This document shows, piece by piece, positions 392-22,999 of a stretch of 64,000 nucleotides of DNA. Numbering within the stretch: position 1 is the first letter of the stretch; each line of letters opens with the position of its first letter. The stretch spans positions 29,966 through 93,965 of the forward strand of contig JAUWHO010000001.1 in the NCBI GenBank assembly GCA_030605835.1, in the 5' to 3' direction. A program made the position numbers and the translations under genes. Under the pieces are notes generated by a model. It saw nothing but the letters and a program-made list of their open reading frames with translations. It had not been told where the DNA came from and did no database searches. The stretch is from Candidatus Zixiibacteriota bacterium. GTDB taxonomy: Bacteria > Zixibacteria > MSB-5A5 > DG-27.

Positions 392-616
392 TCAAGCATA
401 CTCGTAGAGGGGGACTGTTCCTGTTGGAGGCGTCGCTTTCCGTAATAATTCCTCAATCCCACGCACCGTTTCAGGCTTCAAAAGCACATCCCCACACACC
501 GAACACACCTCAGCGGGCACATGATCGATGACGACAACCTGTCCGCGATACCGCACGGTGTGCACAATTTTTCGTCCCTCATATTCACCGGGACAGCCCT
601 GAATACTACACTTCAT
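392..616 (-). CDS. YgiT-type zinc-finger antitoxin (MqsA-like). The likely start is MKCSIQGCPG.
   Basis: Paired CxxC...CxxCGD motifs (MKCSIQGCPG...VCSVCGD). It sits immediately downstream of the DUF4258 gene in the same orientation, with a 5-nt gap. Confidence 0.6.
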   Translation of the reverse strand: MKCSIQGCPGEYEGRKIVHTVRYRGQVVVIDHVPAEVCSVCGDVLLKPETVRGIEELLRKATPPTGTVPLYEYA

Positions 617-621
617 AGCAG

Positions 622-957
622 TTAGCTCCTTTGGGTGGGCGTCACCCACCTTGGCGGTTTAGGTTCATAGACCGTAATAATGATGAGTACCGTCTGGGCT
701 GTAGTGCAGACGATATGTAAAGGGCGACCGCTCCCCGCAAAACCACTAAGCAAACAACAAGCCCCGCGGCGGTGCTCGGGATAGTCCTCCAGAATCTTTC
801 CAGCAGCAATGGCTTCCAAAACCTCATCGAAAACAATGTCCTCCTCAACCATTTCTTGTTGAGCGTGTTGGGTTATGCGAACCTTCTCAGTCGGTGCCTG
901 AGCACGTATCCGCTCCAGCAGCGTCTCCAAGTCGATATTGCCAACTTCAGATGTCAC
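622..957 (-). CDS. DUF4258-family toxin-like protein.
   Basis: Motifs ITQHAQQEM...ILEDYP...GRPLHIVC...IIITVYEP match the DUF4258 pattern. It is the upstream partner of the zinc-finger antitoxin. Confidence 0.6.
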   Translation of the reverse strand: MTSEVGNIDLETLLERIRAQAPTEKVRITQHAQQEMVEEDIVFDEVLEAIAAGKILEDYPEHRRGACCLLSGFAGSGRPLHIVCTTAQTVLIIITVYEPKPPRWVTPTQRS

Positions 958-2888: not shown

Positions 2889-3129
2889 TCCCGTCTATTG
2901 CCGATGGCTCTATATCCTTTATCGGTCGAGGAGGGCGTCCTCAAATGTCCGATGATATGCGAAGCTCACGAGAAAATCAAGTCGATTCTGAAAATGGCCT
3001 GAGCCAGAATTGTCCGAAAGCTTGGCTGTTGGGAAAAAAGTGGGGCAGGAGTGCAACTCCTGCCCCAGCGAATACGCGGGCCCGAGAAACGTTGATTATC
3101 TGCTTAATCCGTTTAATCCGCTGTGAATC

Positions 3130-4986
3130 CTACTTCACCAGCATCATCCTCCGGGTCTCGGTGTAATCTCCAGCACTCAACCTGTAAAAATAGAGACCAG
3201 ATGAGACCGAGGAAGCATCCCAACTGACAGACTTGTATCCCGCGCCCTGTCTCCCATCAACCAACGTTGCTACCTTCTGTCCGAAAAGATTGCAGACCTC
3301 CAACACCACTTGACCATCTTCCGCCAACTCGTACTGGATGGTAGTGGTGGCATTAAAGGGGTTGGGATAATTCTGCGATAGGGCACAAACGCCGGGAAGA
3401 TTGCTTTCCACCGAGGTAACCTCCCTGAACCACACACCACTCCCTGGCCAATCGGCTACCCCTCCCTGTGTCGAACCGTATTTGGTGAAGTAGAGACAAG
3501 TGGAGTCCGTGATAGTCCCGGGGTAGTCACCAAGATAAGCGACAAAGACATAATCTCCTCCAGGTGCAAACCCGGGCACAGGCTGGGTGATGTCATCAAT
3601 GCCAATGCTGTCGACGGGAACGTAGATGTTGTCATACAGGTGTATGGGACCGAGCCGCCCCAACTCGGGAACAAAAACATATGTCCAGAGATCAGCCGGG
3701 CCGCCCAGACCTGAGAAGTTGAAGATCCAACCGTCATAAATGATGTCGCCACCTTCCGGAGGGATGATGACTCGCATATCGTGGGGGTAAAGCTCCACAA
3801 TCCCATCGACATCCTGGTTGAAATAGTAAGCCCCTATGTCGGACCTAGTGCCGTCGGGGTCATAGAGGTAAGGCACGCCAGCATCAATGCACGGTGAACG
3901 CCACCGCAACCTGAAATCGTCCACTTCCCTGCCCACAAACATGGGGTCTACGTTGATATTCCCCTGTCCGGACCAGCCACCCTTGATGTCGCAGTACTCT
4001 ACCGTGGGATACCCCCCCGCGACATAGATCTCCGAACCGCTACCAAGAGCAGTGTTGTCCCAGACAATGGTGTTCTCGATCCGGGGGCGTGAACCGTAGT
4101 TGCAGAAAATACCTCCACCATCGAACGCAAAGTTGTCATAGATCGTGTTGCTCTGTATCAGCGGAGCAGGTGTAGGATATTCATAGTGGACCTGGATACC
4201 ACCACCAGTTGAGGCAGCACAGTTACCGACGATGAGGTTCCCGCTCACTGTGGGACTCTCGTTCCAGACGTAGATCCCGCCAGCCTCCCAGCCCGACGAG
4301 TTGCGGATGATCAGGTTGTTGCTTATCGTCGGGTTGCCATAGGAGCTGAAGATGGCTCCACCGCCCAGGAGCAGAGCGCAGTTCTCCTCGATGATGTTGT
4401 TTGAGATGACTGGATCCCCACCCCACGGGCGGACACCACCGCCTTCAGCCCTCGCCCAGTTGTGGGCGATGTAGTTGTAGCTTATGGTAGGACTACCGTA
4501 GTAGGAGAAGATCCCGGCCCCGTTGTAGGCGCAGTTGTCGGTAATGGTGTTATGGGTTATCGTGGGGCTGCAGTACTCAATGTAGATGGCACCGCCACGC
4601 CAGTCCGGGACACCGCCAGTGGCCTCTCCATACTCCAAGTGGCAATAGCTTATCTCGGAGTTACTGTTGGCGGACAGAAGCCTTATACCATGCCAGCCAA
4701 CGCCAGGATCGTCCGCAGTGAAGTAAATCGAATCAGCTTCTGTCCCGACGGCGAGAAGGGTTGCTGAATTGTCCACGATGAACTTGTAGTGCCCCTGGAA
4801 AATCACCACGATTCCAGGCTCAATGGTTAAGGCTTGTCCTGATGGCACCTGTATTTGCCCGATGACATTATACGGGCTGTTGTCTCTCGTCCAGGTGCCC
4901 GATTGATCCCCCCAGACATCGATTGCTCTGGCGGTCAGAGGAAACAACACAACCGCCATCGCAAGAACTGCAAGTAAGACCCTCAT
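3130..4986 (-). CDS. Secreted parallel beta-helix (PbH1/Pmp-like GGGI...N..I repeat) protein with a T9SS type-A C-terminal sorting domain.
   Basis: Signal peptide MRVLLAVLAMAVVLFPLTARA, repeated GGGI/GGAI-N rungs, and the C-terminal YPNPFN...LYFYRLSAGDYTETRRMMLVK. Confidence 0.8.
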   Translation of the reverse strand: MRVLLAVLAMAVVLFPLTARAIDVWGDQSGTWTRDNSPYNVIGQIQVPSGQALTIEPGIVVIFQGHYKFIVDNSATLLAVGTEADSIYFTADDPGVGWHGIRLLSANSNSEISYCHLEYGEATGGVPDWRGGAIYIEYCSPTITHNTITDNCAYNGAGIFSYYGSPTISYNYIAHNWARAEGGGVRPWGGDPVISNNIIEENCALLLGGGAIFSSYGNPTISNNLIIRNSSGWEAGGIYVWNESPTVSGNLIVGNCAASTGGGIQVHYEYPTPAPLIQSNTIYDNFAFDGGGIFCNYGSRPRIENTIVWDNTALGSGSEIYVAGGYPTVEYCDIKGGWSGQGNINVDPMFVGREVDDFRLRWRSPCIDAGVPYLYDPDGTRSDIGAYYFNQDVDGIVELYPHDMRVIIPPEGGDIIYDGWIFNFSGLGGPADLWTYVFVPELGRLGPIHLYDNIYVPVDSIGIDDITQPVPGFAPGGDYVFVAYLGDYPGTITDSTCLYFTKYGSTQGGVADWPGSGVWFREVTSVESNLPGVCALSQNYPNPFNATTTIQYELAEDGQVVLEVCNLFGQKVATLVDGRQGAGYKSVSWDASSVSSGLYFYRLSAGDYTETRRMMLVK

Positions 4987-5100
4987 TGATACCTCCCCAG
5001 AATTAGGGTTATTGGTTATAAAGAACTGTTAGCTTTCCTTAGACTGTATTCGATCCATTAGATAATCTAAGCTGCCGAGAACATTTGTCAAGCAAAAAAG

Positions 5101-5240
5101 TTGATTTTCTCCACAAGTGGAACCTCACTTCACCAGCATCATCCTCCGGGTCTCGGTGTAATCTCCGGCAGTGAGCTTGTAGAAGTAAATGCCGCAAGAG
5201 ACCTCCGAGGCATCCCAGACGACCGACCTGTAACCTGCCC
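5101..5240 (-). pseudogene. Orphan 3' fragment of a T9SS CTD gene (WDASEVSCGIYFYKLTAGDYTETRRMMLVK*).
   Basis: Only the last ~30 codons of a CTD plus the stop codon are present. No upstream ORF body. It lies directly downstream of the tRNA-like gene. Confidence 0.5.
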
Positions 5241-5331
5241 ACTCAATATCTTACACCACTGTGGCCACCTTCGCGCCCAGCTATTTCAGTCTGAACCAGA
5301 ACCGAAAAGTTCTGTCTTTAGTGAGGTCAAC

Positions 5332-5404
5332 CCCCCGCGGCCGGACTCGAACCAGCGACAGGGTGGTTAACAGCCACCTGCTCTACCAACTGAGCTACAT
5401 CCCC
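5332..5404 (-). tRNA. tRNA-Asn(GTT)-like gene. The D, anticodon and T arms are canonical, but the acceptor stem does not pair in my hand fold.
   Basis: On the minus strand: GGGGATG-TA-GCTC-AGTTGGTA-GAGC-A-GGTGG-CTGTTAA-CCACC-CTGTC-GCTGG-TTCGAGT-CCGGC-CGCGGGG-G. The 5' GGGGATG would need 3' CATCCCC, but CGCGGGG is observed. No CCA. Confidence 0.5.
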
Positions 5405-5509
5405 GAAACTGCTTTCAACGTCTCCGTTTACCAACTCCACCTGTCTTTGTCCTGCCCGCGCCGGTATTGGAAATGCTAGGGGCCTTTCACCACAATCTTT
5501 CAGCTCTCC

Positions 5510-6232
5510 TCACTGCTTTACAGCTAAAACTGCGTTTCTCCTCCGAAGAAATGGAACCAGCCATTGAAGGAGCCTTTCCGCGATATTGAAAACGGGCAGG
5601 TGCGACTCGCGGTGATAAGCTCTCCTGATTCTGAATCCCTGGTCTGTTAATTCCTCTTTGAGTTCCCTCAGGGTTCTATATCCAACGTGACCTTCATCCT
5701 TTTTCAGGATTATATTCCTCTGTTTCAGATACTCGAAGATATGCCCCGGATTAGGCGTCCAGATTATGAGTTTCCCGCCTACCTTGAGAACCCGCTTGAC
5801 CTCGCCAATCAACCTTTTGAACACCTCCGGGTAGAGATGCTCGACCAAATCAGCACAGATAATCACGTCGAAGGAAGCCGACGCAAATCCTGTAGAAGTG
5901 GCGTCTGCCAGGACAAACTCCGCCTTCAGATTCAAATCCTGTGCCAACCTACGGCAGATACTAATCGATTCCTTGGAGTAGTCCAACCCAGTCACCTCAA
6001 CACCCATCCTGGCCAGCTCCATAGAGAAGGTTCCAACCCCGCAACCCAAGTCCAACACCTTCTCACCTCTTTTAGGCCCATAGATCTCAAATACCCTCTC
6101 CAGTCGATAGCGGGTGAACCTGTCTCTCTTCCGATAACTCTCTAAAAGTGGTCGGTAATACTCCCGGTCATAGTGGGGGCGGATTGCCTCCTGTTTTTGC
6201 AGGTCACCGGCATCAGCTTCCTTTTTCTGCAA
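5510..6232 (-). CDS. Class I SAM-dependent methyltransferase.
   Basis: Motif I VLDLGCGVGTFSMELA and a downstream acidic motif II (VIICADLVEH). Confidence 0.75.
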   Translation of the reverse strand: MQKKEADAGDLQKQEAIRPHYDREYYRPLLESYRKRDRFTRYRLERVFEIYGPKRGEKVLDLGCGVGTFSMELARMGVEVTGLDYSKESISICRRLAQDLNLKAEFVLADATSTGFASASFDVIICADLVEHLYPEVFKRLIGEVKRVLKVGGKLIIWTPNPGHIFEYLKQRNIILKKDEGHVGYRTLRELKEELTDQGFRIRRAYHRESHLPVFNIAERLLQWLVPFLRRRNAVLAVKQ

Positions 6233-6277
6233 GCAGCACCTCCTTCGAGAAGATTTTTGAGTTTACCCTTTCATTCC

Positions 6278-6978
6278 TCATTTGAGCAGAGTTACTGGCT
6301 TTTTCCAACTGTGATCGGCGCACGACAGTTGCATGTAATAGACTCCGGAAGCATAATCCCTGGCGTTGAAGAAAACATGGTAACTCCCCTTATGCAGCTT
6401 CCCCTGATAGACATTCTCCATCTTTCTGCCAAGGGGGTCATAGACGGAAAGATCAACCTCGCCTGGTTTTTGAACACAGAAGGAAACATTCATTTGAAGA
6501 TTAAACGGGTTGGGATATGCTGTAAATACAAACCAGTCTTCTGGATTCGAGGGAGACTCGTCGTCCCCGATAACCGGTTTCTAGTGCAGGGCCCAGGTGT
6601 CGTTGAACAGAGCATAGTAGCGCTGATTGCCACCGAAGACCAAGAACCTGCCACCGTGTACGTCGATATTGCCGGTGCAGTCTCGACGTGGCTAAAGGTG
6701 ATAACCGAACCGGCTGAGTCTCCGTCAATTATCGTAGTGGAAATGTAGGTTGTGTCCCCTGTGGTCAAAAACAGCGAAGCCAAAACCACATTATGCCCGT
6801 TGAAGTTAAGGTTCTCATAGTAAGTGCCCGGCTGCACCAAGACGGTATCGCCGTCTAGCCCGTGATCTATCCCCTCCTGTATGGTGGGATAGTCCCCCGG
6901 AATGTTGATGATGGTGGCACCGGCAGTCAGAGGAAACAACACGACCGCCATCGCAAGAACTGCAAGTAAGACCCTCAT
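6278..6978 (-). pseudogene. Disrupted mosaic paralog of the beta-helix T9SS cargo family. The N-terminal ~95 aa and a divergent CTD are retained, and the beta-helix body is deleted or frameshifted.
   Basis: ORF 6490-6978 carries the signal peptide of the 3130-4986 gene and then a body matching the 7118-9127 gene, before it decays. ORF 6278-6493 holds a CTD-like tail (SGVYYMQL...). About 0.7 kb in total, against about 2 kb for intact paralogs. Confidence 0.6.
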
Positions 6979-7117
6979 TTGGTACCTCCCCAGAATTGGG
7001 GTTATTGGTTATAAAGAACTGTTAGCTTTCCTTAGATGTATTCTATCTCCTTAAATAACTTACATTGCCGAGAGCATTTGTCAAGCAAAAAAGTTGATTT
7101 CCTTCATTAGCGGAACC

Positions 7118-9127
7118 TCACTTCACCAGCATCATCCTCCGGGTTTCGGTGAAGTCTCCGGCAGTCAGCTTGTAGAAATAAAGACCGGAGGAAACCGAGG
7201 AAGCATCCCACATCGCAGAGCGGTATCCAGCCGCCTGTCTTTCGTCTACTAAGGTTGCCACCTTTTGACCGGAGAGGTTGTAAATCTCCAGCTTGACGTA
7301 AGCATCTACCGGCAACTGGCAATTGATAGCGGTGGTTGCGTTGAAGGGGTTAGGGTAGTTCTGGCTCAGAGAATACGCTCTCGGCAGAGTAGCTTCCGAT
7401 AGCTCGGAACGGCTATCGAACCACCCCTTAAGAGCCTCCCAACCGTTCCTCTCCCCTGAGGTATAAGCAGCGCCCTCCTTTGCAAAGTACATACAGCTGG
7501 AGTCAATGGTAGAAGAAGGAAAGTCCCCGATGTAGGTCACGAAGCTGTAATCGCCGGAAGGGGCATAACCCGGCACATGCTCTATCAGGTCAGCCCGGAT
7601 GATGCTGTCCGCAAAGGGGATGGTCACATCGCTGTAGCGCCACAGGCGGTAAGGACGGTTAAGCCCCGGCACAAAGGCCTGCGCCCAGATGTCCACCGTG
7701 AGGTTACCCCGCGAGAGATTGAGAACACCGCCGTCATAGGTGATGTCTCCACCCTGCGGCGGAATGACAATCGGCTCATCGTGCGGATACACCTCAACGA
7801 TTCCGACCACCGCGAGGTTGAAGTAGAATGCGCCAATGTCGGAGCGGGTGCCGTCAGGGTCAGTCAGCGAAGGATCGCCGGCATTGATACAGGGGGAGTG
7901 CCACCTTAGGTGGAAATCATCGTTGTAGGGGCCAGCAAACAGCGGGTCAGCATCGATATTGCCGAAACCGGGCCAGCCACCATTGACATCACAGTACCTG
8001 ACTGTAGGATCACTGGCATAACCCACGAAAATCTCTGGGCCGTTTGGCGCTATATTTCCCCACAAGACACTGTTTGTAATCGCTGGGTTGGAATAGTAGT
8101 AGCAATAGACCCCACCGCCGTAAGTAGCCGAATTACCGCTGATGGTGTTTTTGATAATCACCGGTGTGGAGGGGAAGCAAGAAATCCCACTACCTCGATT
8201 AGCCCAATTTTTGCTTATGATATTATCGCTCATCGTAAATTCTGGACGTATCCTCACTATTGCTCTTTTATCTTCATCATCATCACAAGAAATTCCACCT
8301 CCGGTGCTAGCTGAATTACCGCTGATAATATTATTGCTTATCATAGGGCTGGAAACGAAACAGTAAATCCCACCACCGCGAAAGCTAGCCGAATTACCGC
8401 TGAAGGCGTTATCGCTTATAGTCGAACTGGAATATTCACAGCAAATTCCGCCGCCGTAAGTAGCCGAATTACCATTGAAGGTGTTACCACTTATCTTTAA
8501 TCTGCCACGCCAGCAACAGATCCCGCCGCCGAACTCAGCGGAGTTATCGGTAATTGTGTTAGCGCTTATGGTTGGGCTGGAATACTCACAACAAATTCCG
8601 CCACCTTCGGCGTAAGCAACAACTGCCGAATTTCTGCTAATTGTATTACTGCTTATCGTTGCGTTGGAAGATGAGCAAAGAATCCCGCCGCCACCCCACC
8701 AACCAGTCGAATAATTATCGTTGATGATATTATTGCTTATCGTTGGGCTGGAGCCTTTGCAATAGATCCCGCCGCCGGAGCCAGCGCTTCCATTCTGAAT
8801 TGTGAATCCCACAACCTGAGCGGTGCTGTCTTCGCCACTTTCAAAAGTGATGACCGAACCGGCTGAATCACCGTCAATGATAGTGGTGGATATGTAAGCC
8901 GTATCCCCGGTGGTCAAAAACAGCGAAGCTAAAACGACATTATGCCCGTTGAAGTTAAGGTTCTCATAGTAGGTGTCGGGCTGCACCAGGACAGTGTCTC
9001 CATGCGCCCCGTGATTTATCCCTTCCTGTATGGTTGGGTAATCATCGGGGATGTTAATAACAGTAGCACCGGCGATCAGAGGAAACAGCACGACCGTCAT
9101 AACAAAAAGTCTAAGTAAGGCCCTCAT
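7118..9127 (-). CDS. Secreted parallel beta-helix repeat protein with a T9SS type-A CTD.
   Basis: Signal peptide, more than 12 GGGI(Y/C)C...N rungs, and the C-terminal YPNPFN...LYFYKLTAGDFTETRRMMLVK. Confidence 0.8.
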   Translation of the reverse strand: MRALLRLFVMTVVLFPLIAGATVINIPDDYPTIQEGINHGAHGDTVLVQPDTYYENLNFNGHNVVLASLFLTTGDTAYISTTIIDGDSAGSVITFESGEDSTAQVVGFTIQNGSAGSGGGIYCKGSSPTISNNIINDNYSTGWWGGGGILCSSSNATISSNTISRNSAVVAYAEGGGICCEYSSPTISANTITDNSAEFGGGICCWRGRLKISGNTFNGNSATYGGGICCEYSSSTISDNAFSGNSASFRGGGIYCFVSSPMISNNIISGNSASTGGGISCDDDEDKRAIVRIRPEFTMSDNIISKNWANRGSGISCFPSTPVIIKNTISGNSATYGGGVYCYYYSNPAITNSVLWGNIAPNGPEIFVGYASDPTVRYCDVNGGWPGFGNIDADPLFAGPYNDDFHLRWHSPCINAGDPSLTDPDGTRSDIGAFYFNLAVVGIVEVYPHDEPIVIPPQGGDITYDGGVLNLSRGNLTVDIWAQAFVPGLNRPYRLWRYSDVTIPFADSIIRADLIEHVPGYAPSGDYSFVTYIGDFPSSTIDSSCMYFAKEGAAYTSGERNGWEALKGWFDSRSELSEATLPRAYSLSQNYPNPFNATTAINCQLPVDAYVKLEIYNLSGQKVATLVDERQAAGYRSAMWDASSVSSGLYFYKLTAGDFTETRRMMLVK

Positions 9128-9255
9128 TTGGTACCTCCCTTAAAATAGGTTTATTTGTCAAAAGGGGATGCTGGCTTTCCTTGGAATACTTCTCTTATAA
9201 TCCCTATAGTAACCTAAGGCTTCAGATGACCTTTGTCAAGCAGAATGATGACAAG

Positions 9256-10026
9256 CTATTTCAGTCTTTCCTTCGCCTCTTCCCAGAGCCTGTCCATCTC
9301 TTCCAAGTTGGAATCGGAGAGGGTCTTACCCTTCTCTCGCAAACGGTTTTCGATGTATTCGAAGCGTCTTTTGAACTTCTCAGTGGTTGAATTCAAAGCC
9401 TCCTCCGGGGATAAACCTAAATGCCGGCAGAGATTGACCAGGGAGAAGAGTACATCCCCAAGCTCATCTTTGACCTTACGCTTCTCGCCCTCGTGGAACG
9501 ACCTCTCCAGCTCGCCGACCTCCTCCTTGATCTTCTCAAAGACCTCCTCAGCTCTCTCCCAATCGAAATCGAACCGGGCAACCTTCTCCTGCACCCGATA
9601 AGCCTTGAGCAGGGCCGGCAAGGACTTGGGGACTCCCTCCAGGACGGAATACCCCTTCCTGCCGGAATTAGCGAGCTTTATATGTTCCCAGTTCTGCAGA
9701 ACCTCTTCCGGGGTGATCTTCCTCCTTTTCTCGAAGACGTGGGGATGACGAGCGATGAGCTTTTCACAGATCCCCTCGGCGACCCCCCAGATGTCGAAGC
9801 GCCCCTTTTCCTCAGCTAAACGGGCGTGGAAAACAATCTGAAGCAAAAGGTCTCCCAGCTCCTCCTTCAATTTCTGGTCGTCTCCGGAGTCGATGGCCTC
9901 TATGACCTCGTAAGCCTCCTCGATGAGATAGGGTTTGAGGCTCTGGTGGTCCTGTTTCAAGTCCCAGGGACAACCGTCGGGAGAGCGCAGACGAGCCATG
10001 ACTCTTATCAATCTCTCAAATCGGTT
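9256..10026 (-). CDS. mazG: Nucleoside triphosphate pyrophosphohydrolase MazG.
   Basis: MNRFERLIRVMARLRSPDGCPWDLKQ...EE.YE and tandem EExGD-type MazG motifs. The start is moved to the ATG preceded by GAGGGTG. Confidence 0.8.
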   Translation of the reverse strand, partial: NRFERLIRVMARLRSPDGCPWDLKQDHQSLKPYLIEEAYEVIEAIDSGDDQKLKEELGDLLLQIVFHARLAEEKGRFDIWGVAEGICEKLIARHPHVFEKRRKITPEEVLQNWEHIKLANSGRKGYSVLEGVPKSLPALLKAYRVQEKVARFDFDWERAEEVFEKIKEEVGELERSFHEGEKRKVKDELGDVLFSLVNLCRHLGLSPEEALNSTTEKFKRRFEYIENRLREKGKTLSDSNLEEMDRLWEEAKERLK

Positions 10027-10189: not shown

Positions 10190-12883
10190 GTGGTGATTGA
10201 GGTGAACGAAGAGGTCTTACCAAAGCAATACGACCCCAAGAAGACCGAGGATCGGTGGTATCAGTATTGGGAGTCCCGGGGTCTTTTCAAGGCCGACCCC
10301 GAAAGCCCCAAGCCGCCGTACAGCATTGTCATTCCGCCGCCCAACGTTACCGACATCCTCCATCTGGGGCACGCCTTAAACAACAGCCTTCAGGATATTC
10401 TGGTTCGCTACAAGAGGATTCGGGGTTTCGAGACCGAGTGGCTACCGGGGATCGACCACGCCGGAATCGCTACTCAGGTGGTGGTCGAGAAGAAGTTGGC
10501 AGAAGAAGGGATGAGTCGTCAGAAGCTGGGACGGGAGGAGTTCTTAAAGAGGGTTTGGCAGTGGAAGGACAGGAACGCCGACATCATCATCGAGCAGCTC
10601 AAGAAGATCGGCTGTTCCTGCGACTGGGATAAAACCAGGTTCACCATGGACGAGGGGCTCTCCCGGGCAGTTCTGGAGGTCTTCGTTCACCTTTACAACA
10701 AAGGGCTGATCTACAAAGGGAACTACATCGTCAACTGGTGCCCGCGCTGTCAGACTTCCTTATCCGACGATGAACCCGAAAGGGATGAACGGGATGGCCG
10801 GCTCTGGTACATAAAATACAAATTGAAGGGGGAGGACGAGTATATCACCGTCGCCACCACCAGGCCGGAGACCATGCTGGGGGACACCGCCGTCGCCGTT
10901 CACCCCAAAGATAAACGTTACAAAAAATACATAGGCAAGACCGCCATCCTGCCGATACTCGACCGCGAGCTTGCCATCATCGGGGACGAATATGTCGATC
11001 CCCAGTTCGGCACCGGCGCCGTCAAGGTTACTCCGGCGCACGACCCCAATGACTTCGAAGTCGGCAATCGCCACAACTTAGAGAAAATCAATGTCTTAAA
11101 CCCCGATGGCAGCATCAACCAGAATGGCGGCAAGTTCAAAGGTCTGGATCGCTACGAGTGCAGAAAAAGACTGGTCGCGGAACTGAAGAAGAAGGGGCTT
11201 TTAGAGAAGGAGGAGAAATACCGCGTCCCGGTTTTAACCTGCTACCGTTGTCATACCGATATCGAGCCCTATCTGTCGGAACAATGGTTCGTCAAGATGA
11301 AACCGCTGGCGGAGCCGGCCATTAAGGCGGTCAAAGAGGGCACCATAAGATTTTATCCCGGGCACTGGAGCAAGGTCTACCTCCACTGGATGGAGAACAT
11401 CCACGATTGGTGCATCTCCCGGCAGTTGTGGTGGGGACATCGTATTCCGGTCTGGTATTGCGACGACTGTCCCGAGATAACGGTCTCCAAGACCACCCCG
11501 GAGAGTTGTGGCCACTGTGGGAGTAAAAATGTCCACCAAGAAGAGGATGTCCTGGACACCTGGTTCTCCTCCTGGCTGTGGCCCTTTTCCACCTTCGGCT
11601 GGCCGGAGAAGACCAAGGAGCTGGAGGTCTTCTATCCCACCAAGCCCCTCTTCACGGCCTCGGAAATCATCTTCCTCTGGGTCGGGAGAATGGTGATGGC
11701 CGGGTATGAATTCATGGGCAAGCCCCCCTTCACCGACGTTTACATCCACGGCACCGTCCGGGACATAAACGGGATTAAGATGAGCAAGTCCCTGGGGAAC
11801 GGGATCGACCCCCTGGAGATCGTTCGGGATTACGGTGCCGATGCCCTGAGGATGACATTAGTCTTGGTCACCCCGGAGGGACAAGACCCCTTCCTGGCCA
11901 AGAACTCCTTCGAGCTGGGGAGGAATTTCTGCAACAAGCTCTGGAATGCTGGTCGCTTCGTTCTTTCTAACCTCAAGGATTTCGAGGCCAAGGAAGGGGA
12001 GACCTTCCCTCCGGACAGAAAGAGCTTGGACACCGCCGACCGCTGGATTCTGTCGCGCTTCTACGGGGCGATGGAAACCGTCGAGAAGGCCATCGAAAGC
12101 TATCGGTTCAACCAGGCCGGGAAGACTCTCTACGATTTCCTCTGGAAGGATTTTTGCGACTGGTATCTGGAATTCATAAAAGAGCGCCTTTACGATGCCG
12201 AGCATCCCCGGGAGAAAAGGATACCACAGCTTTTGGCCTCCCACCTGCTGGAGAAGACCCTGGTGGCTCTGTCTCCATTCGTTCCTTACATCTCCGAGGA
12301 GATCTGGCAGAGGTTGTCCAAGAAGATTTACATCGACGGCTCCCCCTGGACCGTCAACTACGCCGGCTGGCCGCAGACAAGAAGAGAGTGCCTCGACCTT
12401 GCCTTAGAGTCAGAGATGTCGCAGCTTCAGGAGGTCATCTATTCAGTTCGCAGCATCCGGGCGGAGATGAACGTCAAGCCGGCAAAGAGGGCAGACGTCA
12501 TAATAAAAACCGACAATCCCGAGCTCCACAAGCTGCTGGAGAAAAACAGACATTATATAACGCAACTGGGGAAGGTCGACAACCTGGAGATCTCTCCGAG
12601 AGCTAAGAAACCCCAGCATGCCGCCTCCGCGGTCGTCAGGGGAGCGGAGATCTACGTTCCCCTGGAGGGCTTGATTGATCTGGAGATTGAGAAATCACGT
12701 CTGGAAAAGGAGATGGAAAGGCTCAACGAGCAAATCGACAAGACCGCCAGGAAACTGAACAACAAAGACTTCACCAACAAAGCGCCTCCGGAGGTTGTCG
12801 AGAGAGAGAGGGCCAAACAACAGGAATATCAACAGATGCTCGACAAAATCGTCAAGAATATCGAAAGCTTGGTGGGATGGTAG
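10190..12883 (+). CDS. valS: Valine--tRNA ligase.
   Basis: HLGH (PPPNVTDILHLGHAL) and KMSKS (IKMSKSLGN) class I motifs, and a coiled-coil C-terminus. The exact GTG start is ambiguous within 10190-10211. Confidence 0.92.
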   Translation: MVIEVNEEVLPKQYDPKKTEDRWYQYWESRGLFKADPESPKPPYSIVIPPPNVTDILHLGHALNNSLQDILVRYKRIRGFETEWLPGIDHAGIATQVVVEKKLAEEGMSRQKLGREEFLKRVWQWKDRNADIIIEQLKKIGCSCDWDKTRFTMDEGLSRAVLEVFVHLYNKGLIYKGNYIVNWCPRCQTSLSDDEPERDERDGRLWYIKYKLKGEDEYITVATTRPETMLGDTAVAVHPKDKRYKKYIGKTAILPILDRELAIIGDEYVDPQFGTGAVKVTPAHDPNDFEVGNRHNLEKINVLNPDGSINQNGGKFKGLDRYECRKRLVAELKKKGLLEKEEKYRVPVLTCYRCHTDIEPYLSEQWFVKMKPLAEPAIKAVKEGTIRFYPGHWSKVYLHWMENIHDWCISRQLWWGHRIPVWYCDDCPEITVSKTTPESCGHCGSKNVHQEEDVLDTWFSSWLWPFSTFGWPEKTKELEVFYPTKPLFTASEIIFLWVGRMVMAGYEFMGKPPFTDVYIHGTVRDINGIKMSKSLGNGIDPLEIVRDYGADALRMTLVLVTPEGQDPFLAKNSFELGRNFCNKLWNAGRFVLSNLKDFEAKEGETFPPDRKSLDTADRWILSRFYGAMETVEKAIESYRFNQAGKTLYDFLWKDFCDWYLEFIKERLYDAEHPREKRIPQLLASHLLEKTLVALSPFVPYISEEIWQRLSKKIYIDGSPWTVNYAGWPQTRRECLDLALESEMSQLQEVIYSVRSIRAEMNVKPAKRADVIIKTDNPELHKLLEKNRHYITQLGKVDNLEISPRAKKPQHAASAVVRGAEIYVPLEGLIDLEIEKSRLEKEMERLNEQIDKTARKLNNKDFTNKAPPEVVERERAKQQEYQQMLDKIVKNIESLVGW

Positions 12884-12938: not shown

Positions 12939-14306
12939 ATGAGAAAGATTGCACTTCTTATGATAGTTTTCTTTGGGGCCTGCGCTTTCGCCGGGGATTT
13001 CAGCCTCACCGTCTATAATCAGGACATAAGCCTGGTGAAACAGAAAGAGAGCTTCAACTTCTCGAAGGGGACCCAGGAGATAAGTCTGCAAGGGGTTCCC
13101 TCCCGGATCGACCCCACCTCGGTTCATTTCAAGCCCTTGAAGGATGCCAACAAAATCGCGCTGTTGGAGCAAAACTACCGTTACGACTTGGTGAGCCCCT
13201 CTAAGATATTCGAGAGATACTTAGACCATAAGATCCAGCTCACCACCAAGGGGGACAAATTCTACGAGGGCAGCCTCCTGAGTTTCAACGAGGGGCAGAT
13301 CGTGATTAAGAATGGCGGTCTCTCCATCGTGCGCGTCGATGAGATCAGGGACTATCAGTTCCCCGACCTCCCCGAGGGGCTTTTGACCAAGCCGACGCTG
13401 GTGTGGTTGGTAGAGAGCGGCATCCGCGGTCGCCGCGATTGCGAGGTCAGCTATCTCACCAAGGGGTTGAGCTGGCATGCCGAGTATGTTGCCGTAGTCG
13501 ACCAAGAGGATAAGAACTTGGAGCTGTCTGGATGGGTGTCATTGGATAACAGAAGCGGGGCCACCTACGAAAACGCCAAGCTCAAACTGATCGCCGGAGA
13601 TGTTCACCTGGTGGAGGCTTATCCGACCCGCCTCGTTGATATGGAAGGACTGGGTCGACCCTCCAAGGCGGTGCCCCAATTTGAAGAGCGTGCCTTTTTC
13701 GAATACCACCTCTATACTATGATCAGGCCGACAACTCTCAAAGATAAAGAGACCAAGCAACTCTCCCTGTTTCCGGCAGCCTCCACTCCGGTCAAAAAGA
13801 TTTACACCTTCGAGAGCAGAGGCTACTACCCTCGAGCTCGAGGCGGACGAGATCAGAAGGTGGCCGTAACTCTGGAGTTCACCAACGCTCAGAAACAGGG
13901 ACTGGGGATCCCCCTGCCGGAGGGAAAAATCAGAGTCTATAAGGCCGACAGAGATGGGTCTTTAGAGTTTATTGGGGAGGATAAGATCGATCACACCCCC
14001 AAAGATGAAAAGGTGCGCGTTTTCGTCGGGAACGCCTTCGATATCGTCGGGGAGAGAACTCAGAAGGAGCGCAAGGAGCTTGCCCCCAAGCTGGTCGATG
14101 AGACCTACGAGATCAAGTTGAGAAATCATAAGGAGGAGAAGGTAGAGGTGGTAGTGGTGGAACACTTCCACCGCTCCCGGGACTGGGAGATAATTGAATC
14201 CAACTACACCTATACCAAAAATGATGCCTGGACGGTTGAATTCGTCATTCCGGTGAAGGCCGACGGCGAATCCATTTTGGAATACAAGGTCCGTTACCGC
14301 TGGTAG
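12939..14306 (+). CDS. DUF4140/DUF4139-like (mucoidy inhibitor MuiA-like) secreted protein.
   Basis: Signal peptide, and an N-terminal TVY...V...LP..IDP.SV pattern typical of DUF4140/DUF4139 proteins. Motif-level recall only. Confidence 0.55.
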   Translation: MRKIALLMIVFFGACAFAGDFSLTVYNQDISLVKQKESFNFSKGTQEISLQGVPSRIDPTSVHFKPLKDANKIALLEQNYRYDLVSPSKIFERYLDHKIQLTTKGDKFYEGSLLSFNEGQIVIKNGGLSIVRVDEIRDYQFPDLPEGLLTKPTLVWLVESGIRGRRDCEVSYLTKGLSWHAEYVAVVDQEDKNLELSGWVSLDNRSGATYENAKLKLIAGDVHLVEAYPTRLVDMEGLGRPSKAVPQFEERAFFEYHLYTMIRPTTLKDKETKQLSLFPAASTPVKKIYTFESRGYYPRARGGRDQKVAVTLEFTNAQKQGLGIPLPEGKIRVYKADRDGSLEFIGEDKIDHTPKDEKVRVFVGNAFDIVGERTQKERKELAPKLVDETYEIKLRNHKEEKVEVVVVEHFHRSRDWEIIESNYTYTKNDAWTVEFVIPVKADGESILEYKVRYRW

Positions 14307-18230: not shown

Positions 18231-20381
18231 ATGAATATGAGACTGTTTTTGAGCTTTGTCATTGTTTCCCTTTTTCTCCTTCCTGCTTCTTCTTTGGCGG
18301 TGGAGGTTTCCGGTCCGGTATGGGGTCGCTGGACGGTTGAGAACTCCCCTTACGATGTCGTTGGAGAGGTGAGAGTACCTCCCGAATCGACCCTCATAAT
18401 CGACCCCGGAGTGGTGGTCAACTTCAAGGGGCACTACAAATTTATCGTGGATAGTGCCGCGGTGCTGTTAGCAGTCGGGAGCGAGACCGATTCTATCTAC
18501 TTCACTCCAGAGGACACCACCGTTGGATGGCACGGCATCCGCTTCATCCATGCCGACGGAGCCTCACACCTCTCTCATTGTCAAATCAGATACGGAAAAG
18601 CCACGGGGACCTATCCCGACTACCACGGTGGCGGTGTCTTCTGTTACTATTCTGACCTCAAAATTAACAACTGTAGCATCGTCAGAAATCATGCGATGAG
18701 AAACGGTTTTGGCGGGGGAATCTACTGCTACCACTCGAGCTGCGAGATAACTGAAAGCGACATCAGCTTCAACAAGGCCACCCCGATCGGAGGCGGCATT
18801 TACGCCGTCTATTCAAATCTCACCATCAGATCCAGCAGTCTCGTCAGAAACATGGCGTGGGGGGCCGGCGGCGGCATCTACTGCGGCTCCTCCGATTTGG
18901 TCTCAAGCTCCAACAGCTTCAGCGACAATTGGTCCTTCTTCGGAGGCGGGATCTATGCCTTCAGCTCTCAGGTCAACATAACCAGCGACAGCTTTGAAGC
19001 TAACTCCATTAGCCACCTGGGGGGCGGGATTTTCGTTGGCGACTGCGATGGAGTAATAAATGATAACGTCATCGCCGGTAACGATGCTGAGGATGGTGGC
19101 GGCATCTTTTGCGGGTATGGTTCGACGGTTATCATAGCCAATAACCTCATCAGCAATAACACTACCTACCACGCCGACGATGATGGCGGCGGCATCTTCT
19201 GCCACAATTCAAGCCCCGAGATACTTCATAACCTCATTATCGGGAACTTCGCCCAGCGTTACGGTGGTGGTATCTATCTCTGGGGCTCAAGTCCCTTGAT
19301 AGAAGGCAACACCATAAGCATGAACACCGCCCAATACGGTGGGGGCATATGTTGTCACGATAGCTCCTTTGTAACGGTCACAAACAACATACTCTGGGAA
19401 GATTCTGCCGAGGTGGGAATGGAACTCTGCTTGTTATATGATGCGGAAGCAGTCCCCCCTGTGCTTACAGTTAGTTATAGTGACGTTGAAGGGGGCGAAG
19501 GAGATGTTTACGTCGCCCCTGAAGCCGAACTTGTCTGGGGATACGGCAACCTCGATCTAGACCCACTCTTTATCGATTCCCACGGAGACGATTTTCACCT
19601 GCTGCCCACGTCTCCGTGTATCGACGTGGGAGATCCATATATGGAGGACTATGACCACTCCCGTTCGGACATGGGAGCTTTGCCATATTTCCACAAGATC
19701 GCCTTGCGCCTGCGCCCGGATGACCCTTTCCCTCTCAGCTTCCCCCGGGGTTATGACGCCTACGGGATGAGAACCATCGCCAATAACACTGCCTCTCCCA
19801 AGCCGGTCAAGCTTTCGAGCGTCATTACCAACTCCGCCGGTGACACCCTGAGAAATCTGTATTCGTGGGAGGGAAATCTGCCCAGACAACACTTGAGGGA
19901 GGATTACGGCTATCTCCACGTTCCAAGCTATGTGCCGCCCGGTTTCTACAACTACGTGATGGCGGCGGAGAATGCTTCAACCGGTGAGATCTGGCACACC
20001 TCGGTGACGCCGTTTGAGATTTCTGAAGGTGGAGCGATTGCAACCTCTGGTGAAGGTTGGTTCTCACAATTCGGGGAAAAGTTCTCTCGGGGCGAGGATG
20101 TGAGCTTTATCCCTTCAGAGACGAGCCTCAATACTCGTTGTTATCCCAACCCCTTCAATACCTCCACCACTATCAGCTACCAGCTTCAAACTGCAGGCCA
20201 GGTCACTTTGGAAGTCTACAACCTTCTTGGACAGAGGGTGACCACATTAGTGAACGAAAAGCAGCAGGCTGGAGATAAATTTGTAATCTGGGATGCTTCC
20301 CAAGTTTCCTCCGGGCTTTACTTCTACAAGTTGACCGCCGGGGATTTCACGCAGACCAAGAGGATGATGCTGGTGAAGTGA
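18231..20381 (+). CDS. Secreted parallel beta-helix repeat protein with a T9SS type-A CTD.
   Basis: The N-terminus is homologous to the 3130-4986 gene (VWGRWTVENSPYDVVGEVRVP...HYKFIVD). It has GGGI rungs and ends YPNPFN...LYFYKLTAGDFTQTKRMMLVK. Confidence 0.8.
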   Translation: MNMRLFLSFVIVSLFLLPASSLAVEVSGPVWGRWTVENSPYDVVGEVRVPPESTLIIDPGVVVNFKGHYKFIVDSAAVLLAVGSETDSIYFTPEDTTVGWHGIRFIHADGASHLSHCQIRYGKATGTYPDYHGGGVFCYYSDLKINNCSIVRNHAMRNGFGGGIYCYHSSCEITESDISFNKATPIGGGIYAVYSNLTIRSSSLVRNMAWGAGGGIYCGSSDLVSSSNSFSDNWSFFGGGIYAFSSQVNITSDSFEANSISHLGGGIFVGDCDGVINDNVIAGNDAEDGGGIFCGYGSTVIIANNLISNNTTYHADDDGGGIFCHNSSPEILHNLIIGNFAQRYGGGIYLWGSSPLIEGNTISMNTAQYGGGICCHDSSFVTVTNNILWEDSAEVGMELCLLYDAEAVPPVLTVSYSDVEGGEGDVYVAPEAELVWGYGNLDLDPLFIDSHGDDFHLLPTSPCIDVGDPYMEDYDHSRSDMGALPYFHKIALRLRPDDPFPLSFPRGYDAYGMRTIANNTASPKPVKLSSVITNSAGDTLRNLYSWEGNLPRQHLREDYGYLHVPSYVPPGFYNYVMAAENASTGEIWHTSVTPFEISEGGAIATSGEGWFSQFGEKFSRGEDVSFIPSETSLNTRCYPNPFNTSTTISYQLQTAGQVTLEVYNLLGQRVTTLVNEKQQAGDKFVIWDASQVSSGLYFYKLTAGDFTQTKRMMLVK

Positions 20382-20666
20382 GGTCCCTGATCCTCTTTTG
20401 ACGGGGGCTGTGTAAAGCATTGTGTGGTTTTCTGCCCAGGGGTGGCTAGAGAAGAAATGTATATGCCGGCAGGGACAGACAGTCCTGGATAAGCTTGACA
20501 GGATCAAGCGCAAAACCATGAGGCTGAGGCGCGCTCAGAATCGCCCAACATGTTTTTCAGCCGTTGCGGGTTTTTGGGGCATTTAAGCTACGATTCAGAA
20601 ATAAACTTGCGAGTTTACCAAACTCTGAATTCACGCAACAGCCCCGAAATCGGCTGCAAAAAATCG

Positions 20667-21512
20667 TTATGTATTTTCAATTATGCCACTATTGACGCAT
20701 ATTTGTGTGAACAGTGCTCCAACATTAAATAGGACTGTATTTCCTGTATCAATTCCCAGTTTATTTACTTTTATCTTAACTTTAATTTCAGCTTTTTTCC
20801 GTGCATCAAAAATTGCAAATATACCTTGCGCACCCTTACTTCCCGTAATATTCACTCTTGCTGGATTGTTTTCAAATTCTTTTGAGCAGGTTTTAAGAAC
20901 ATAACTTTTTATATCCTGCTCATCTGTTAACTCTAAATATTCTTTAGTCACGAACTCATTACCATAAAATTCCATTTTTGTTAGGATAGAAAAGTCTTCT
21001 TCTCTGTCAAAGGAAATAACGTCAATGCTCATAAAGAATCTATTATCAAGGGTTCCTTGTTCTATCAGGTAATCTATATAATAATCTAAACCATCAGTTA
21101 TTCTGCCTGAGTTATCAATATTGTATTTCTTTTTAAGAACCGCCAGAAGTTTCTTTAGCCCAGTATCAAAGTTACCCCGAAAATCAGCGTAGAGTTTGTC
21201 TCTTAGTAGAAGCGGTATTTTGCAATCATCAATAATAACTGGAAGTATTGTTATTTTCTTATCTTCAATTTCTTTTAATAGCCCTGCATTAATTTCCCTC
21301 TTAACCCACTCGGATTTTATTGAGTTATTTGAAAATACAACACAAATGTAGCTTGCTCCTTCAAGACCATCCTGAATCTTATTGATAAATGAATCACCAA
21401 CACTGATTTGCCACTCATCTTTCCATACCTTGACATTATGAGAAATGAGAGACATAGCTAGTTTATCAACAAATTCGCTATCTTGATGGTTATAACTTAT
21501 AAATACTGACAT
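20667..21512 (-). CDS. TIR-domain protein with an uncharacterized C-terminal domain of about 145 aa (TIR-C).
   Basis: FISYNHQDSEFV (beta-A) and SEWVKREI (SxW...E catalytic-Glu signature). The C-terminal half matches nothing I recognise. AT-rich codon usage. Confidence 0.75.
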   Translation of the reverse strand: MSVFISYNHQDSEFVDKLAMSLISHNVKVWKDEWQISVGDSFINKIQDGLEGASYICVVFSNNSIKSEWVKREINAGLLKEIEDKKITILPVIIDDCKIPLLLRDKLYADFRGNFDTGLKKLLAVLKKKYNIDNSGRITDGLDYYIDYLIEQGTLDNRFFMSIDVISFDREEDFSILTKMEFYGNEFVTKEYLELTDEQDIKSYVLKTCSKEFENNPARVNITGSKGAQGIFAIFDARKKAEIKVKIKVNKLGIDTGNTVLFNVGALFTQICVNSGIIENT

Positions 21513-21565
21513 AGATTTTCACTATTATCTCATCACATAACGATAAGGATAACCCCCTGGTATGG

Positions 21566-21600
21566 AGCGCAGCGGAATACCAGTCGGGTTCATCTTTTTG
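21566..21600 (-). terminator. Hairpin between TIR-B and TIR-C. Possible intrinsic terminator or attenuator.
   Basis: Minus strand: CTGGTAT-tccgctgcgctcc-ATACCAG, then GGGGTTATCCTTATCGTTAT. A GC-rich hairpin in an otherwise AT-rich spacer. Confidence 0.3.
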
Positions 21601-21617
21601 TTATGCTAAATTAAGTC

Positions 21618-22001
21618 TCAGTCCCGAATAGCTTTTGCTATCTCCTTAGCTGCAGAAACTGGAGAGCTTTCACGCAAATATTGATATTTTACTAAGGATA
21701 AAGGTAGTCGCTCATGTCCAACTTCATCAATAACAACTGGAATAATCCTTTTTTTGTCAGCCACAGCAGCCCCTAACTCAAAATATATCCATGGACTTTG
21801 AAGGCTATTTGAACTTAACAAAACCACCAAAGTGCTACTCGCCCGAAGTGCCTCTTGAGTTTGTTGCCTAATATCTTCCCCTAAGGATATTTCATGATAA
21901 TCAAACCAAACTTCAATTCCTTCCTGCTCAAGGGTTTCAGCGAATGCTTGCACCCAACGTCTGTCTTTGAAGGAGTAGGATAAGAATATTTTATTCTTCA
22001 T
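21618..22001 (-). CDS. TIR-only protein (TIR-B).
   Basis: FLSYSFKDRRWV and SPWIYFEL (SxWxxxEL). 127 aa. Its start overlaps the upstream TIR-A stop. Confidence 0.75.
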   Translation of the reverse strand: MKNKIFLSYSFKDRRWVQAFAETLEQEGIEVWFDYHEISLGEDIRQQTQEALRASSTLVVLLSSNSLQSPWIYFELGAAVADKKRIIPVVIDEVGHERLPLSLVKYQYLRESSPVSAAKEIAKAIRD

Positions 22002-22435
22002 TTCTCTACCCCCATCTTAGAATCTTTGTTGACACGCTCTTCAAGCTGACCGAAATATTGGTCAATATCATTTAAACTAATGATGTCCCTTTTCTTTAGG
22101 AATACAGGTGCGTTGGGACGAGATTGAAATTCTGAAGGGGATAAACCGTGCAAAACCACAATTATTGGGATTCTCCTTATCCACGCTGCTCCTATTTCTG
22201 CCCATACGTATGGCCTCTCAAATGACCATGGTGTGAATAACACTAATAATTCATCTGCCTTATCCAAAAACTCTAGAATATCTTCCTCGAATTCAGCACC
22301 AATATCGACATCTGCCTCATCGAGAAATGGAGTAGCATTGTGAGATGTTATTTCTCTTGCTATCTGCCTTGCCACCCAAGTATCTTGCCCCGAATGGCTA
22401 ACAAACACCAATTTTTCATTAGTTTGGTCGGTCAT
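21998..22435 (-). CDS. TIR-only protein (TIR-A).
   Basis: FVSHSGQDTWVA and TPWSFERPYVWAEIG. 145 aa. First gene of the AT-rich island operon. Confidence 0.7.
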   Translation of the reverse strand: MTDQTNEKLVFVSHSGQDTWVARQIAREITSHNATPFLDEADVDIGAEFEEDILEFLDKADELLVLFTPWSFERPYVWAEIGAAWIRRIPIIVVLHGLSPSEFQSRPNAPVFLKKRDIISLNDIDQYFGQLEERVNKDSKMGVEK

Positions 22436-22463
22436 TCCATTAAGACCTTTTCTGTTTTATTGG

Positions 22464-22864: not shown

Positions 22865-22999
22865 CTTGAGTGCGGTCCGGAAAATGCCTGTGGATATCTT
22901 AATGGGTGGGATGCTTCTGATGTCTCCTCTGGTCTTTACTTCTACAAATTGACCGCTGGTGACTTGTCTGAGACTAAAAGGATGATTCTATTGAAATAG
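22865..22999 (+). pseudogene. Orphan T9SS CTD 3' remnant with low-GC codons (...NACGYLNGWDASDVSSGLYFYKLTAGDLSETKRMILLK*).
   Basis: Only about 45 codons of CTD homology at the 3' end of an otherwise composite ORF. Third codon positions are AT-biased, unlike the native CTDs. Confidence 0.5.

Follow-up and report, generated by a model that had tools for sequence, protein, structure and literature searches.

Do the partial and chimeric gene copies found within a cluster of surface-protein genes serve a programmed switch, or are they what the ordinary evolution of a gene family leaves behind? This question is raised by an array of genes in a 64-kb stretch of a Candidatus Zixiibacteriota contig (the window, by which we mean the whole of this stretch). 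Between the genes for MazG and a ClC channel, the array includes two full-length paralogs (A and B) that encode predicted secreted proteins, a pseudogene (Psi) and an orphan 3' end of a further gene; the third full-length paralog (C) is encoded farther along the opposite strand. We consider it quite probable that the array is a cluster of chromosomal paralogs, encoding beta-helix proteins that are secreted or attached to the surface, and that these genes recombine at their conserved ends in the course of ordinary family evolution. The resulting diversity is a population-level evolutionary outcome, not a programmed switch within the cell.

The assignment of the host to Candidatus Zixiibacteriota agrees with the named matches of the protein family, which are proteins from Zixibacteria metagenome-assembled genomes (MAGs), and with a contig 90% identical to the window that belongs to a Candidatus Zixiibacteriota MAG. 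The rest of the window is core chromosome, with genes for ValRS, PriA, MreB, SecY, RpoA and ribosomal proteins. The window was compared with loci on related contigs (L001, L002, L003, L004, L012, L013, L016, L018, L020 and L021); all comparison sequences are metagenome-derived. Read along the minus strand from 9255 to 3041, the order is the MazG stop codon, the leader of B, B, the leader of Psi, Psi, a methyltransferase gene, a tRNA-like element, the orphan tail, the leader of A, A, a terminator and the ClC channel gene, and the array is broken up by the methyltransferase gene and the broken tRNA, two elements that do not figure in the preliminary description. The terminator 3' of A (3041..3067, minus strand) is a strong intrinsic one, with a 12-pair stem followed by a T-run, and is kept in L002. 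The three open reading frames (ORFs) and all other elements listed in a preliminary description, which was made from the sequence without database searches, were found at or near the positions given there.

Domain architecture of the paralogs

[quoted passage not shown] The sorting domain profile TIGR04183 (cut-off 23 bits) matches A, B and C with 42.8, 43.5 and 53.1 bits, respectively, and the remnant in Psi with 28.8 bits, and Pfam Por_Secre_tail (PF18962, cut-off 27 bits) matches the three proteins with 34.7, 36.4 and 44.2 bits. In each protein, the sorting domain ends 3–5 residues short of the stop codon. The signal peptides, read straight from the sequence, are MRVLLAVLAMAVVLFPLTARA in A (followed by I) and MRALLRLFVMTVVLFPLIAGA in B (followed by T), each with a basic n-region, a hydrophobic core and an AxA site.

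The passengers are recognized by several repeat profiles. Pfam Beta_helix matches A with 75.3 bits; TIGR03804 (cut-off 19.45 bits) matches B with 20.2 and C with 19.9 bits; Chlam_PMP (PF02415, cut-off 20.6 bits) matches B with 26.9 bits, C under the cut-off with 17.4 bits, and A not at all; and the POMP repeat profile TIGR01376 (cut-off 15 bits) matches B with 32.4 bits. The motif GG[AG][ILV] occurs 5, 8 and 11 times and FxxN 0, 3 and 3 times in A, B and C, respectively, with 8 GGG[IV] coils in B and 10 in C. The AlphaFold2 model of B, for which 38 sequences were used, with a mean predicted local distance difference test score (pLDDT) of 76.7, consists of a helix (residues 2–18), a beta-helix of three-strand coils (20–385, pLDDT >90), a low-confidence linker, a beta-sandwich (440–550) and the CTD sandwich (597–669). 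Comparisons with the PDB returned 9rx2, a ‘parallel beta-helix repeat protein’ (profile search, E 6.5e-8), Rhombotarget A and a PL6 lyase, and a fold search of the PDB with the B model found nothing beyond generic tandem beta-sandwiches (RbmA, TM-score relative to the query, TMq, ~0.15), with no pointer to function.

Taken together, the sorting-domain profiles, the repeat profiles and the model bear out the earlier description of these genes as T9SS type A cargo paralogs with repeats of the type found in polymorphic membrane proteins (Pmp). Membership in the chlamydial Pmp family does not follow: the C-terminus is a T9SS CTD beta-sandwich, not an autotransporter barrel, and no Pfam or NCBIfam autotransporter domain matches A, B or C. 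The family is very large, with >5000 matches at E<1e-10. Exact-match look-ups with B, the Psi ORF, the methyltransferase and a TIR protein gave no entry, and the source genome is accordingly absent from the collection searched. A has an ortholog in L020 (P0241, 87% identical), and B has one as well (P0001, 93% identical). All paralogs had been described as sharing signal peptides and N-domains. This holds for the signal-peptide type, but the N-domain of A resembles that of C and the N-domain of B that of Psi, so that A and B have the signal-peptide type only in common.

Zixiibacteriota belong to the Fibrobacterota–Chlorobiota–Bacteroidota (FCB) group, a superphylum in which T9SS occurs (PMC9170169; PMC12398890). 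Given that six T9SS type A CTD cargo genes are encoded within the first 28 kb of the window (A, B, C and three more), a functional T9SS in this host is likely. The three additional genes (23200-24957, 25030-27132 and 27163-28302, plus strand) carry passengers unrelated to those of the array, one of them with a weak transglutaminase-core match. A search of the literature on Zixibacteria with T9SS or PorV, or on gene conversion of T9SS CTDs, found nothing directly relevant.

Leaders and the repeated unit

A repeat search detected two copies (4925-5283 and 6917-7275) of a unit that consists of a CTD tail, a leader and signal-peptide codons; a third leader, at 9128-9185, is a weaker match. Collinearity of the two units extends over 360 nt. 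A 23-nt motif, TTGCTTGACAAATGYTCTCGGCA, and a 35-nt block of the untranslated region (UTR) are both present in exactly two copies in 64 kb, with an expectation of 0.00 from shuffled sequence. Identity between the units varies sharply by segment: 72% in the CTD tail, 84% after the stop codon, 96% in the -35 block, 38% in a 29-nt patch with the -10 element and transcription start site, 95% in the proximal UTR and 94% in the signal peptide. Runs of full identity reach at most 38 nt (permutation p=0.007). The near-identical leaders of ~110 nt reported in the preliminary description are thus present as two blocks of 94–96% identity, but the poorly conserved patch lies between them, and the leader of B is only ~72% identical to those of A and Psi.

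The leader of B (9128..9255, minus strand) begins right after the MazG stop codon and contains a -35 element TTGACA (9239-9234), a -10-like TAGGTT (9216-9211) and a Shine-Dalgarno sequence GGAGGT (9138-9133). The leader of Psi (6979..7117, minus strand), which is of the A type, has TTGACA at 7084-7079, a -10-like TAAGTT at 7062-7057 and a Shine-Dalgarno sequence at 6989-6984. In the leader of A (4987..5124, minus strand), TTGACA (5091-5086) is separated by a 16-nt spacer from a -10 element TAGATT (5069-5064), the Shine-Dalgarno sequence is at 4996-4991, and the promoter matches the consensus at 10/12 positions in a promoter scan. The simplest reading of the leaders would be a sigma-70-like promoter combined with a strong Shine-Dalgarno sequence; transcription is predicted to start ~7 nt downstream of 5064, 7057 and 9211. 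Within the 5' UTR of B there is a second TTGACA (9156-9161, minus strand; CCCCTTTTGACAAATAAACC), which may be an extra promoter or a binding site; the B-type leaders of L001 and L004 share it with that of the window, and L002 has TTGACG instead.

The proximal UTR of A is ~97% identical between the window and L020, a relative that is 84% identical overall, and the B-type leader differs at ~5/95 positions between the window and L002, compared with 26–50% of the synonymous sites in neighboring genes. Because leader divergence is far below the synonymous divergence nearby, the leaders are under functional constraint, so that part of their identity reflects constraint and not conversion. Two other candidate explanations of the leaders were rejected. 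A riboswitch-like structure is not indicated by RNAalifold, which gave -7.6 kcal/mol and one covarying pair for seven A- and B-type leaders, or by Rfam, which has no match there; an origin of the leaders from a mobile element was dismissed since the leader motif is present only twice in 64 kb and lacks terminal repeats.

Pseudogene Psi and the orphan CTD tails

Pseudogene Psi (6281..6978, minus strand) combines an A-type signal peptide (6978-6922), a B-type N-domain that extends to 6694, a foreign body fragment and a divergent type A CTD (~6568-6281). Three-frame translation shows that frame 0 is open through the signal peptide and the N-domain to 6694 (…GSVITF) and then turns into nonsense; past this junction, the reading frame changes to that of an unrelated body fragment, which contains an in-frame TAG near 6583. 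The CTD is complete but divergent, ends at 6281, and is <=40% identical to any other CTD fetched. The signal-peptide codons are identical to those of A at 55/57 positions versus 46/57 for B, and the next 143 nt match the B-type gene of L002 better (126/143) than the B gene of the window itself (115/143). The frames and identities agree with the earlier view of Psi as a mosaic, internally deleted pseudogene; since it unites an A-type leader and signal peptide, a B-type N-domain and an unrelated body with a distinct CTD lineage, its sources are three, not two as had been assumed.

The orphan CTD tail upstream of the A leader (5125..5283, minus strand) spans 51 codons; a TAA lies inside it (5253-5251), and its stop codon is a TGA (5127-5125). 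Read from 5283 to 5125, it translates as LGAKVATVV*DIEWAGYRSVVWDASEVSCGIYFYKLTAGDYTETRRMMLVK*. It shows 70–74% amino acid identity to the tails of A and B (tblastn) and 72% nucleotide identity to the tail of B. A tail at this position is old because L020, at 84% identity, also has the last 27 nt of a tail upstream of its A leader. The second orphan tail (22907..22999, plus strand; 30 codons) is 79% identical to the C tail, with which it pairs over 20289-20377 and 22907-22995, and lies beyond a low-GC block with three TIR-domain genes. Both tails are orphans as first described, with their limits, previously placed at 5101-5240 and 22865-22999, better drawn as given here.

Exchange between paralogs and between strains

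The gene content of the MazG-ClC slot differs between related contigs. The window has B, Psi, the methyltransferase gene, the tail and A in this slot, whereas L002 (84–89% identical) has one B-like gene between MazG and ClC. L004 (~90%) also has a single gene there: its leader is of the B type, its signal peptide and N-domain are of the A type, and its body (730 aa) is A-like; this body is only 69% identical to A at the nucleotide level, compared with 90–91% in the CTD and flanks. In L001 (94.5% nucleotide identity), MazG is followed by the B leader and a B ortholog, and the contig ends exactly at the B stop codon. In L020 (84%), the end of a CTD tail is followed by a leader of the A type, the A ortholog and the start of ClC, and L003 and L018 begin right at the A stop codon. 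Such breaks of L001, L003 and L018 at CTD stop codons are what repeats that an assembler cannot resolve would produce.

Statistically sharp breakpoints are found in these contigs, within the CTD tail, at the ATG and where the signal peptide ends, in agreement with the exchange of segments between paralogs that had been proposed. Over the final 420 nt of B, L001 follows the B type as far as column 287 (83 vs 15 informative sites) and the A type thereafter (2 vs 26; Fisher p=2.8e-14); its last 121 aligned nucleotides are identical to the A tail of the window at 117/121 positions and to the B tail at 95/121. L004 switches from B-like (26/11) to A-like (5/49) inside a 19-nt shared block around the ATG (p=2e-9). 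At both junctions, the parental types have <=19 identical nucleotides in common, which argues against a k-mer artifact; specifically, the tail switch in L001 is not attributable to a de Bruijn graph because the parental types lack a usable common k-mer at the junction. The strain comparison had been suggested in the preliminary description, with the lack of breakpoints and of allelic mosaics taken as evidence against exchange; mosaics are present in L001 and L004.

The leaders of A and Psi in the window and of A in L020 provide a further case. In this triplet, the best-supported pairing changes four times within 230 nt: Psi pairs with L020 in the post-stop segment, A with Psi in the -35 block (8/9 sites), A with L020 in the -10 patch (19/20) and A with Psi again in the signal peptide (11/14). 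Because the pairings conflict by segment, a single duplication date is ruled out, and at least two exchange tracts are needed.

The identity between the window and L001 is patchy, with 100% over 500 nt of ValRS (10934-11433), one mismatch in 809 nt of the B helix core (7968-8776) and 74–91% in the 3' third of B. This patchiness points to frequent inter-strain homologous exchange, or to strain-mixed contigs.

An ectopic rRNA-spacer fragment with a chimeric tRNA

The gene that separates Psi from the orphan tail (5510..6232, minus strand; Pfam) encodes an intact class I S-adenosylmethionine-dependent methyltransferase of 240 aa. Its orthologs (83%, 73% and 66% amino acid identity) occupy the 16S-23S spacer of rRNA operons, flanked by tRNA-Ile(GAT) and tRNA-Ala(TGC), in L013 (1747-2786), L016 (8106-14309), L021 (105-1101) and L012. 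The last of these loci is 97.5% identical to window positions 6391-5380, with the order tRNA-Ile 3' end, the last 110 nt of the Psi CTD, methyltransferase and tRNA-Ala start. Given that the orthologs are encoded in rRNA spacers and that no rRNA genes were found in the 64-kb window, the block between Psi and the orphan tail is an ectopic rRNA-spacer fragment. The relative with the spacer methyltransferase in L016 also has a group I intron in its 23S rRNA gene (12977-13266; Rfam RF00028, 59.7 bits).

The tRNA-like element downstream of the methyltransferase gene (5330..5404, minus strand) matches the Rfam tRNA model with 46.7 bits over model positions 6-65 only, and ARAGORN finds nothing there. 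Alignment to L012 and L013 shows that it is a chimera, to which the spacer tRNA-Ala contributes the 5' acceptor strand and the D-stem and tRNA-Asn(GTT) the sequence from the D-loop onward, with the junction within a shared 12-nt TAGCTCAGTTGG. When the first 7 nt are swapped to CCCCGCG, ARAGORN calls a perfect tRNA-Asn(GTT); the failure to detect the native element is due to an acceptor stem that cannot pair. The chimeric tRNA is non-functional, and the spacer fragment appears to have been joined here through microhomology, via this element. The possibility that a truncated tRNA-Asn served as an integrase attachment site was dropped since the relatives show the context of tRNA-Ile, methyltransferase and tRNA-Ala. 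A protein-coding gene kept in an rRNA spacer is unusual and may be more unusual biology than the array itself.

Selection and signs of programmed variation

The ratio of nonsynonymous to synonymous substitution rates (dN/dS) is 0.10 for MazG and 0.06 for ClC, compared with 0.14 for B between the window and L001, 0.14 for A between the window and L020, and 0.22 for B between the window and L002. The B helix core is particularly divergent between the window and L002, with a proportion of nonsynonymous differences (pN) of 0.29–0.34 and with indels. A and B evolve faster than their neighbors and yet under purifying selection. Positive selection was considered and rejected: dN/dS is 0.14–0.22, and no segment of the alignment exceeds 1 except a near-identical block with too few changes to judge.

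None of the usual devices of phase variation were identified. Two weak inverted repeats are present in 2900-9400, neither of which brackets a leader; no recombinase or transposase domain was detected among the ORFs of the window; and Tandem Repeats Finder reports no tandem repeats. The longest simple tracts are C7 at 4012-4018 and (TCA)4 at 8274, and the T-run of the leader has 6 nt. The C7 tract (G7 on the coding strand), the sole homopolymer of at least 7 nt in 2900-9400, is located mid-gene in A and gives no hint of phase variation, as it is too short and lies too deep inside the coding sequence. A layout with an expression site and silent cassettes is absent as well: each of A, B and C is preceded by a promoter-like leader of its own. 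The partial copies bear conserved ends and stop codons, not the variable passenger, and therefore cannot donate diversity.

Accessory genes near the array

The 3' end of the ClC gene is duplicated (231-351 and 1091-1211; 121 nt, 86% identical). Between the two copies lies a small cassette with genes for a DUF4258 protein and an MqsA-like antitoxin (ORFs 622-957 and 392-649, minus strand); the same place in L002 contains HicA/HicB and no duplicate 3' end. Downstream of C, a block at ~20600-22600 with a GC content of 30–42%, versus ~52%, includes three TIR-domain genes (TIR_2, ThsB-like; 20667-21512, 21618-22001 and 21998-22435, all minus strand). This block, located between the CTD tail of C and the orphan tail 22907-22999, is probably an acquired defense cassette.

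A model of family evolution and its alternatives

We propose that each full-length gene would have a sigma-70-like promoter of its own and a constrained leader of ~70 nt that includes a strong Shine-Dalgarno sequence. The encoded protein starts with a Sec signal peptide and continues with the beta-helix passenger, which is variable, the beta-sandwich domain and the T9SS type A CTD. Because they are conserved among the paralogs, the front end (leader and signal peptide) and the back end (the last ~135–350 nt of the CTD) could act as homology handles for ordinary RecA-type recombination, with exchange at these handles among the paralogs as well as from strain to strain. Passengers in the MazG-ClC slot would then be swapped, deleted and added by gene conversion and unequal crossing-over, and Psi and the orphan CTD tails would be scars of such exchange. 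At least two further illegitimate or microhomology joints would have brought in the rRNA-spacer piece, with the methyltransferase gene and half of a tRNA-Ala, and fused it to tRNA-Asn. Of the elements of this model, the domains, the anatomy of the repeats, the mosaic breakpoints, the structural differences between strains and the tRNA chimera are observed, and promoter activity, T9SS export, the pathway of recombination and the order of events are inferred.

Several observations weigh against this model. The comparators are metagenome contigs of strain mixtures, and part of the mosaicism could stem from assembly. The adjacencies of the B tail with the Psi leader (7118 to 7117) and of the tRNA with the orphan tail (~5330 to 5283) are without independent contig support. 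The promoter of A alone passes the consensus scan. Recombination is not special to the array because the patchy identity between the window and L001 is seen everywhere, including ValRS. Finally, no gene for the T9SS core machinery (PorK/L/M/N, SprA/Sov, PorU, PorV) was detected among the ORFs of the 64-kb window, so that the export of A, B and C is predicted from the CTD alone.

One alternative, a single recent segmental duplication of the tail, leader and signal peptide followed only by point mutation and decay, accounts for the collinearity of the two units over 360 nt; it is very improbable in view of the 38% to 96% range of identity in adjacent segments, of the -10 patch that joins A to L020 where the -35 block and signal peptide join A to Psi, and of the tail exchange between close strains. 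We give similarly little credence to programmed phase or antigenic variation, raised as a possibility in the preliminary description, in which Psi and the tails would be silent donors or the leader a switchable promoter and a surface antigen would vary at high frequency within a clone. In its favor are a multicopy surface family with conserved ends, a variable middle, partial copies, signs of conversion and a B helix core highly diverged from that of L002, with indels, but there are no inverted repeats that bracket the leaders, no site-specific recombinase in 64 kb and no tandem or simple repeats, the partial copies lack the variable passenger, every full-length paralog has its own promoter-like leader, and dN/dS stays at 0.14–0.22. 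Assembly artifacts caused by the repeated CTD and leader sequences, either in the multi-gene order of the window or in the single-gene orders of L002 and L004, are improbable too, if less so. In favor of this possibility, the contigs of the relatives repeatedly break at CTD ends, the two unsupported adjacencies named above remain without a second contig, and the L002 tail is too diverged for breakpoint placement. Nevertheless, the repeat units of the window have no identical run longer than 38 nt; L020 confirms the succession of tail, leader, A and ClC, L001 that of MazG, leader and B, and L012 that of the Psi CTD tail, methyltransferase and 5' part of the tRNA; the Psi CTD reads through the point of divergence from L012 as a single coherent domain; the parental types have too few identical bases at the junctions of L001 and L004 for a de Bruijn chimera; and the gene body in L004 is a different paralog (69% nucleotide identity), not a collapse of A and B.

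A less remote alternative, which can coexist with recombination at the conserved ends, concerns the origin of the orphan tails. These could be scars of the capture of accessory cassettes by homology-facilitated illegitimate recombination, and not remnants of deleted paralogs: one side of the insert would be anchored in the conserved 3' end of a gene and the other joined illegitimately, leaving a diverged second copy of the 3' end beyond the insert. This pattern is seen three times in the window, where copies of the ClC 3' end flank the DUF4258/MqsA-like cassette (with HicAB at the same place in L002), copies of the C tail flank the three TIR genes in their low-GC block, and copies of the B tail with leader and signal peptide flank the 3' part of Psi, the methyltransferase gene and the tRNA chimera, whose joint uses just 12 nt of shared sequence. 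However, an ‘empty’ site is seen in no relative, either for C or for the tail at 5125-5283, no integrase or transposase is present, the unit duplicated at A includes a full leader and signal peptide, a better fit to a truncated paralog, and the tail in front of the A leader is already found in L020 at 84% identity and hence is old. On balance, we regard capture as a possible but rather unlikely origin of the tails. Equally tentative is the broader idea that the MazG-ClC slot is a true cassette-exchange locus, in which the leader and signal peptide on one side and the CTD tail on the other are portable handles that swap passengers and capture TIR genes, toxin-antitoxin pairs and the spacer methyltransferase. 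If this were true, the T9SS sorting domain would double as a genomic integration anchor.

Relation to known systems and implications

The closest known parallel is the rgpA/kgp/hagA family of Porphyromonas gingivalis, a multigene family of T9SS type A CTD cargo that shares and exchanges adhesin and C-terminal segments. Like that family, the array combines a Sec signal peptide, a variable passenger and a type A CTD in many paralogs, with recombination at shared segments; unlike it, the host is a member of Zixiibacteriota, not Bacteroidota, the passenger is a PbH1/POMP-repeat beta-helix, and exchange occurs at the leader and signal peptide and at the CTD tail. The chlamydial Pmp proteins are similar in their parallel beta-helix coils of the GGx[ILV] type and in forming a paralogous, variable surface family, and B passes both Chlam_PMP and TIGR01376, but Pmp are type V autotransporters with a C-terminal beta-barrel, in contrast to the T9SS sorting domain and the few FxxN motifs (0–3) found here.

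The orphan tails resemble the orphan modules of rhs and cdiA loci in that promoterless 3' fragments, derived by recombination at a conserved junction, are located beside full-length paralogs. Those orphans, however, consist of a variable toxin tip and an immunity gene and are reusable, whereas the fragments here are conserved sorting tails with stop codons that carry no variable information. Gene conversion among partial and full copies of surface genes is also shared with Neisseria pilE/pilS, Borrelia vlsE and Treponema tprK; unlike these systems, the array has no single expression site, no donor cassettes for a variable region and no specialized recombination signals.

We do not postulate any new mechanism, given that recombination among paralogous surface-protein genes is already well known. 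For annotation and assembly, the array is a caution: CTD tails and shared leaders break metagenome contigs, and pseudogenes or orphan fragments can be miscalled as small genes. For the biology of the family, it provides a worked example, from an uncultured phylum, of how large T9SS cargo families diversify by exchange at the export signals located at the two ends of the gene while the passenger in between is replaced.

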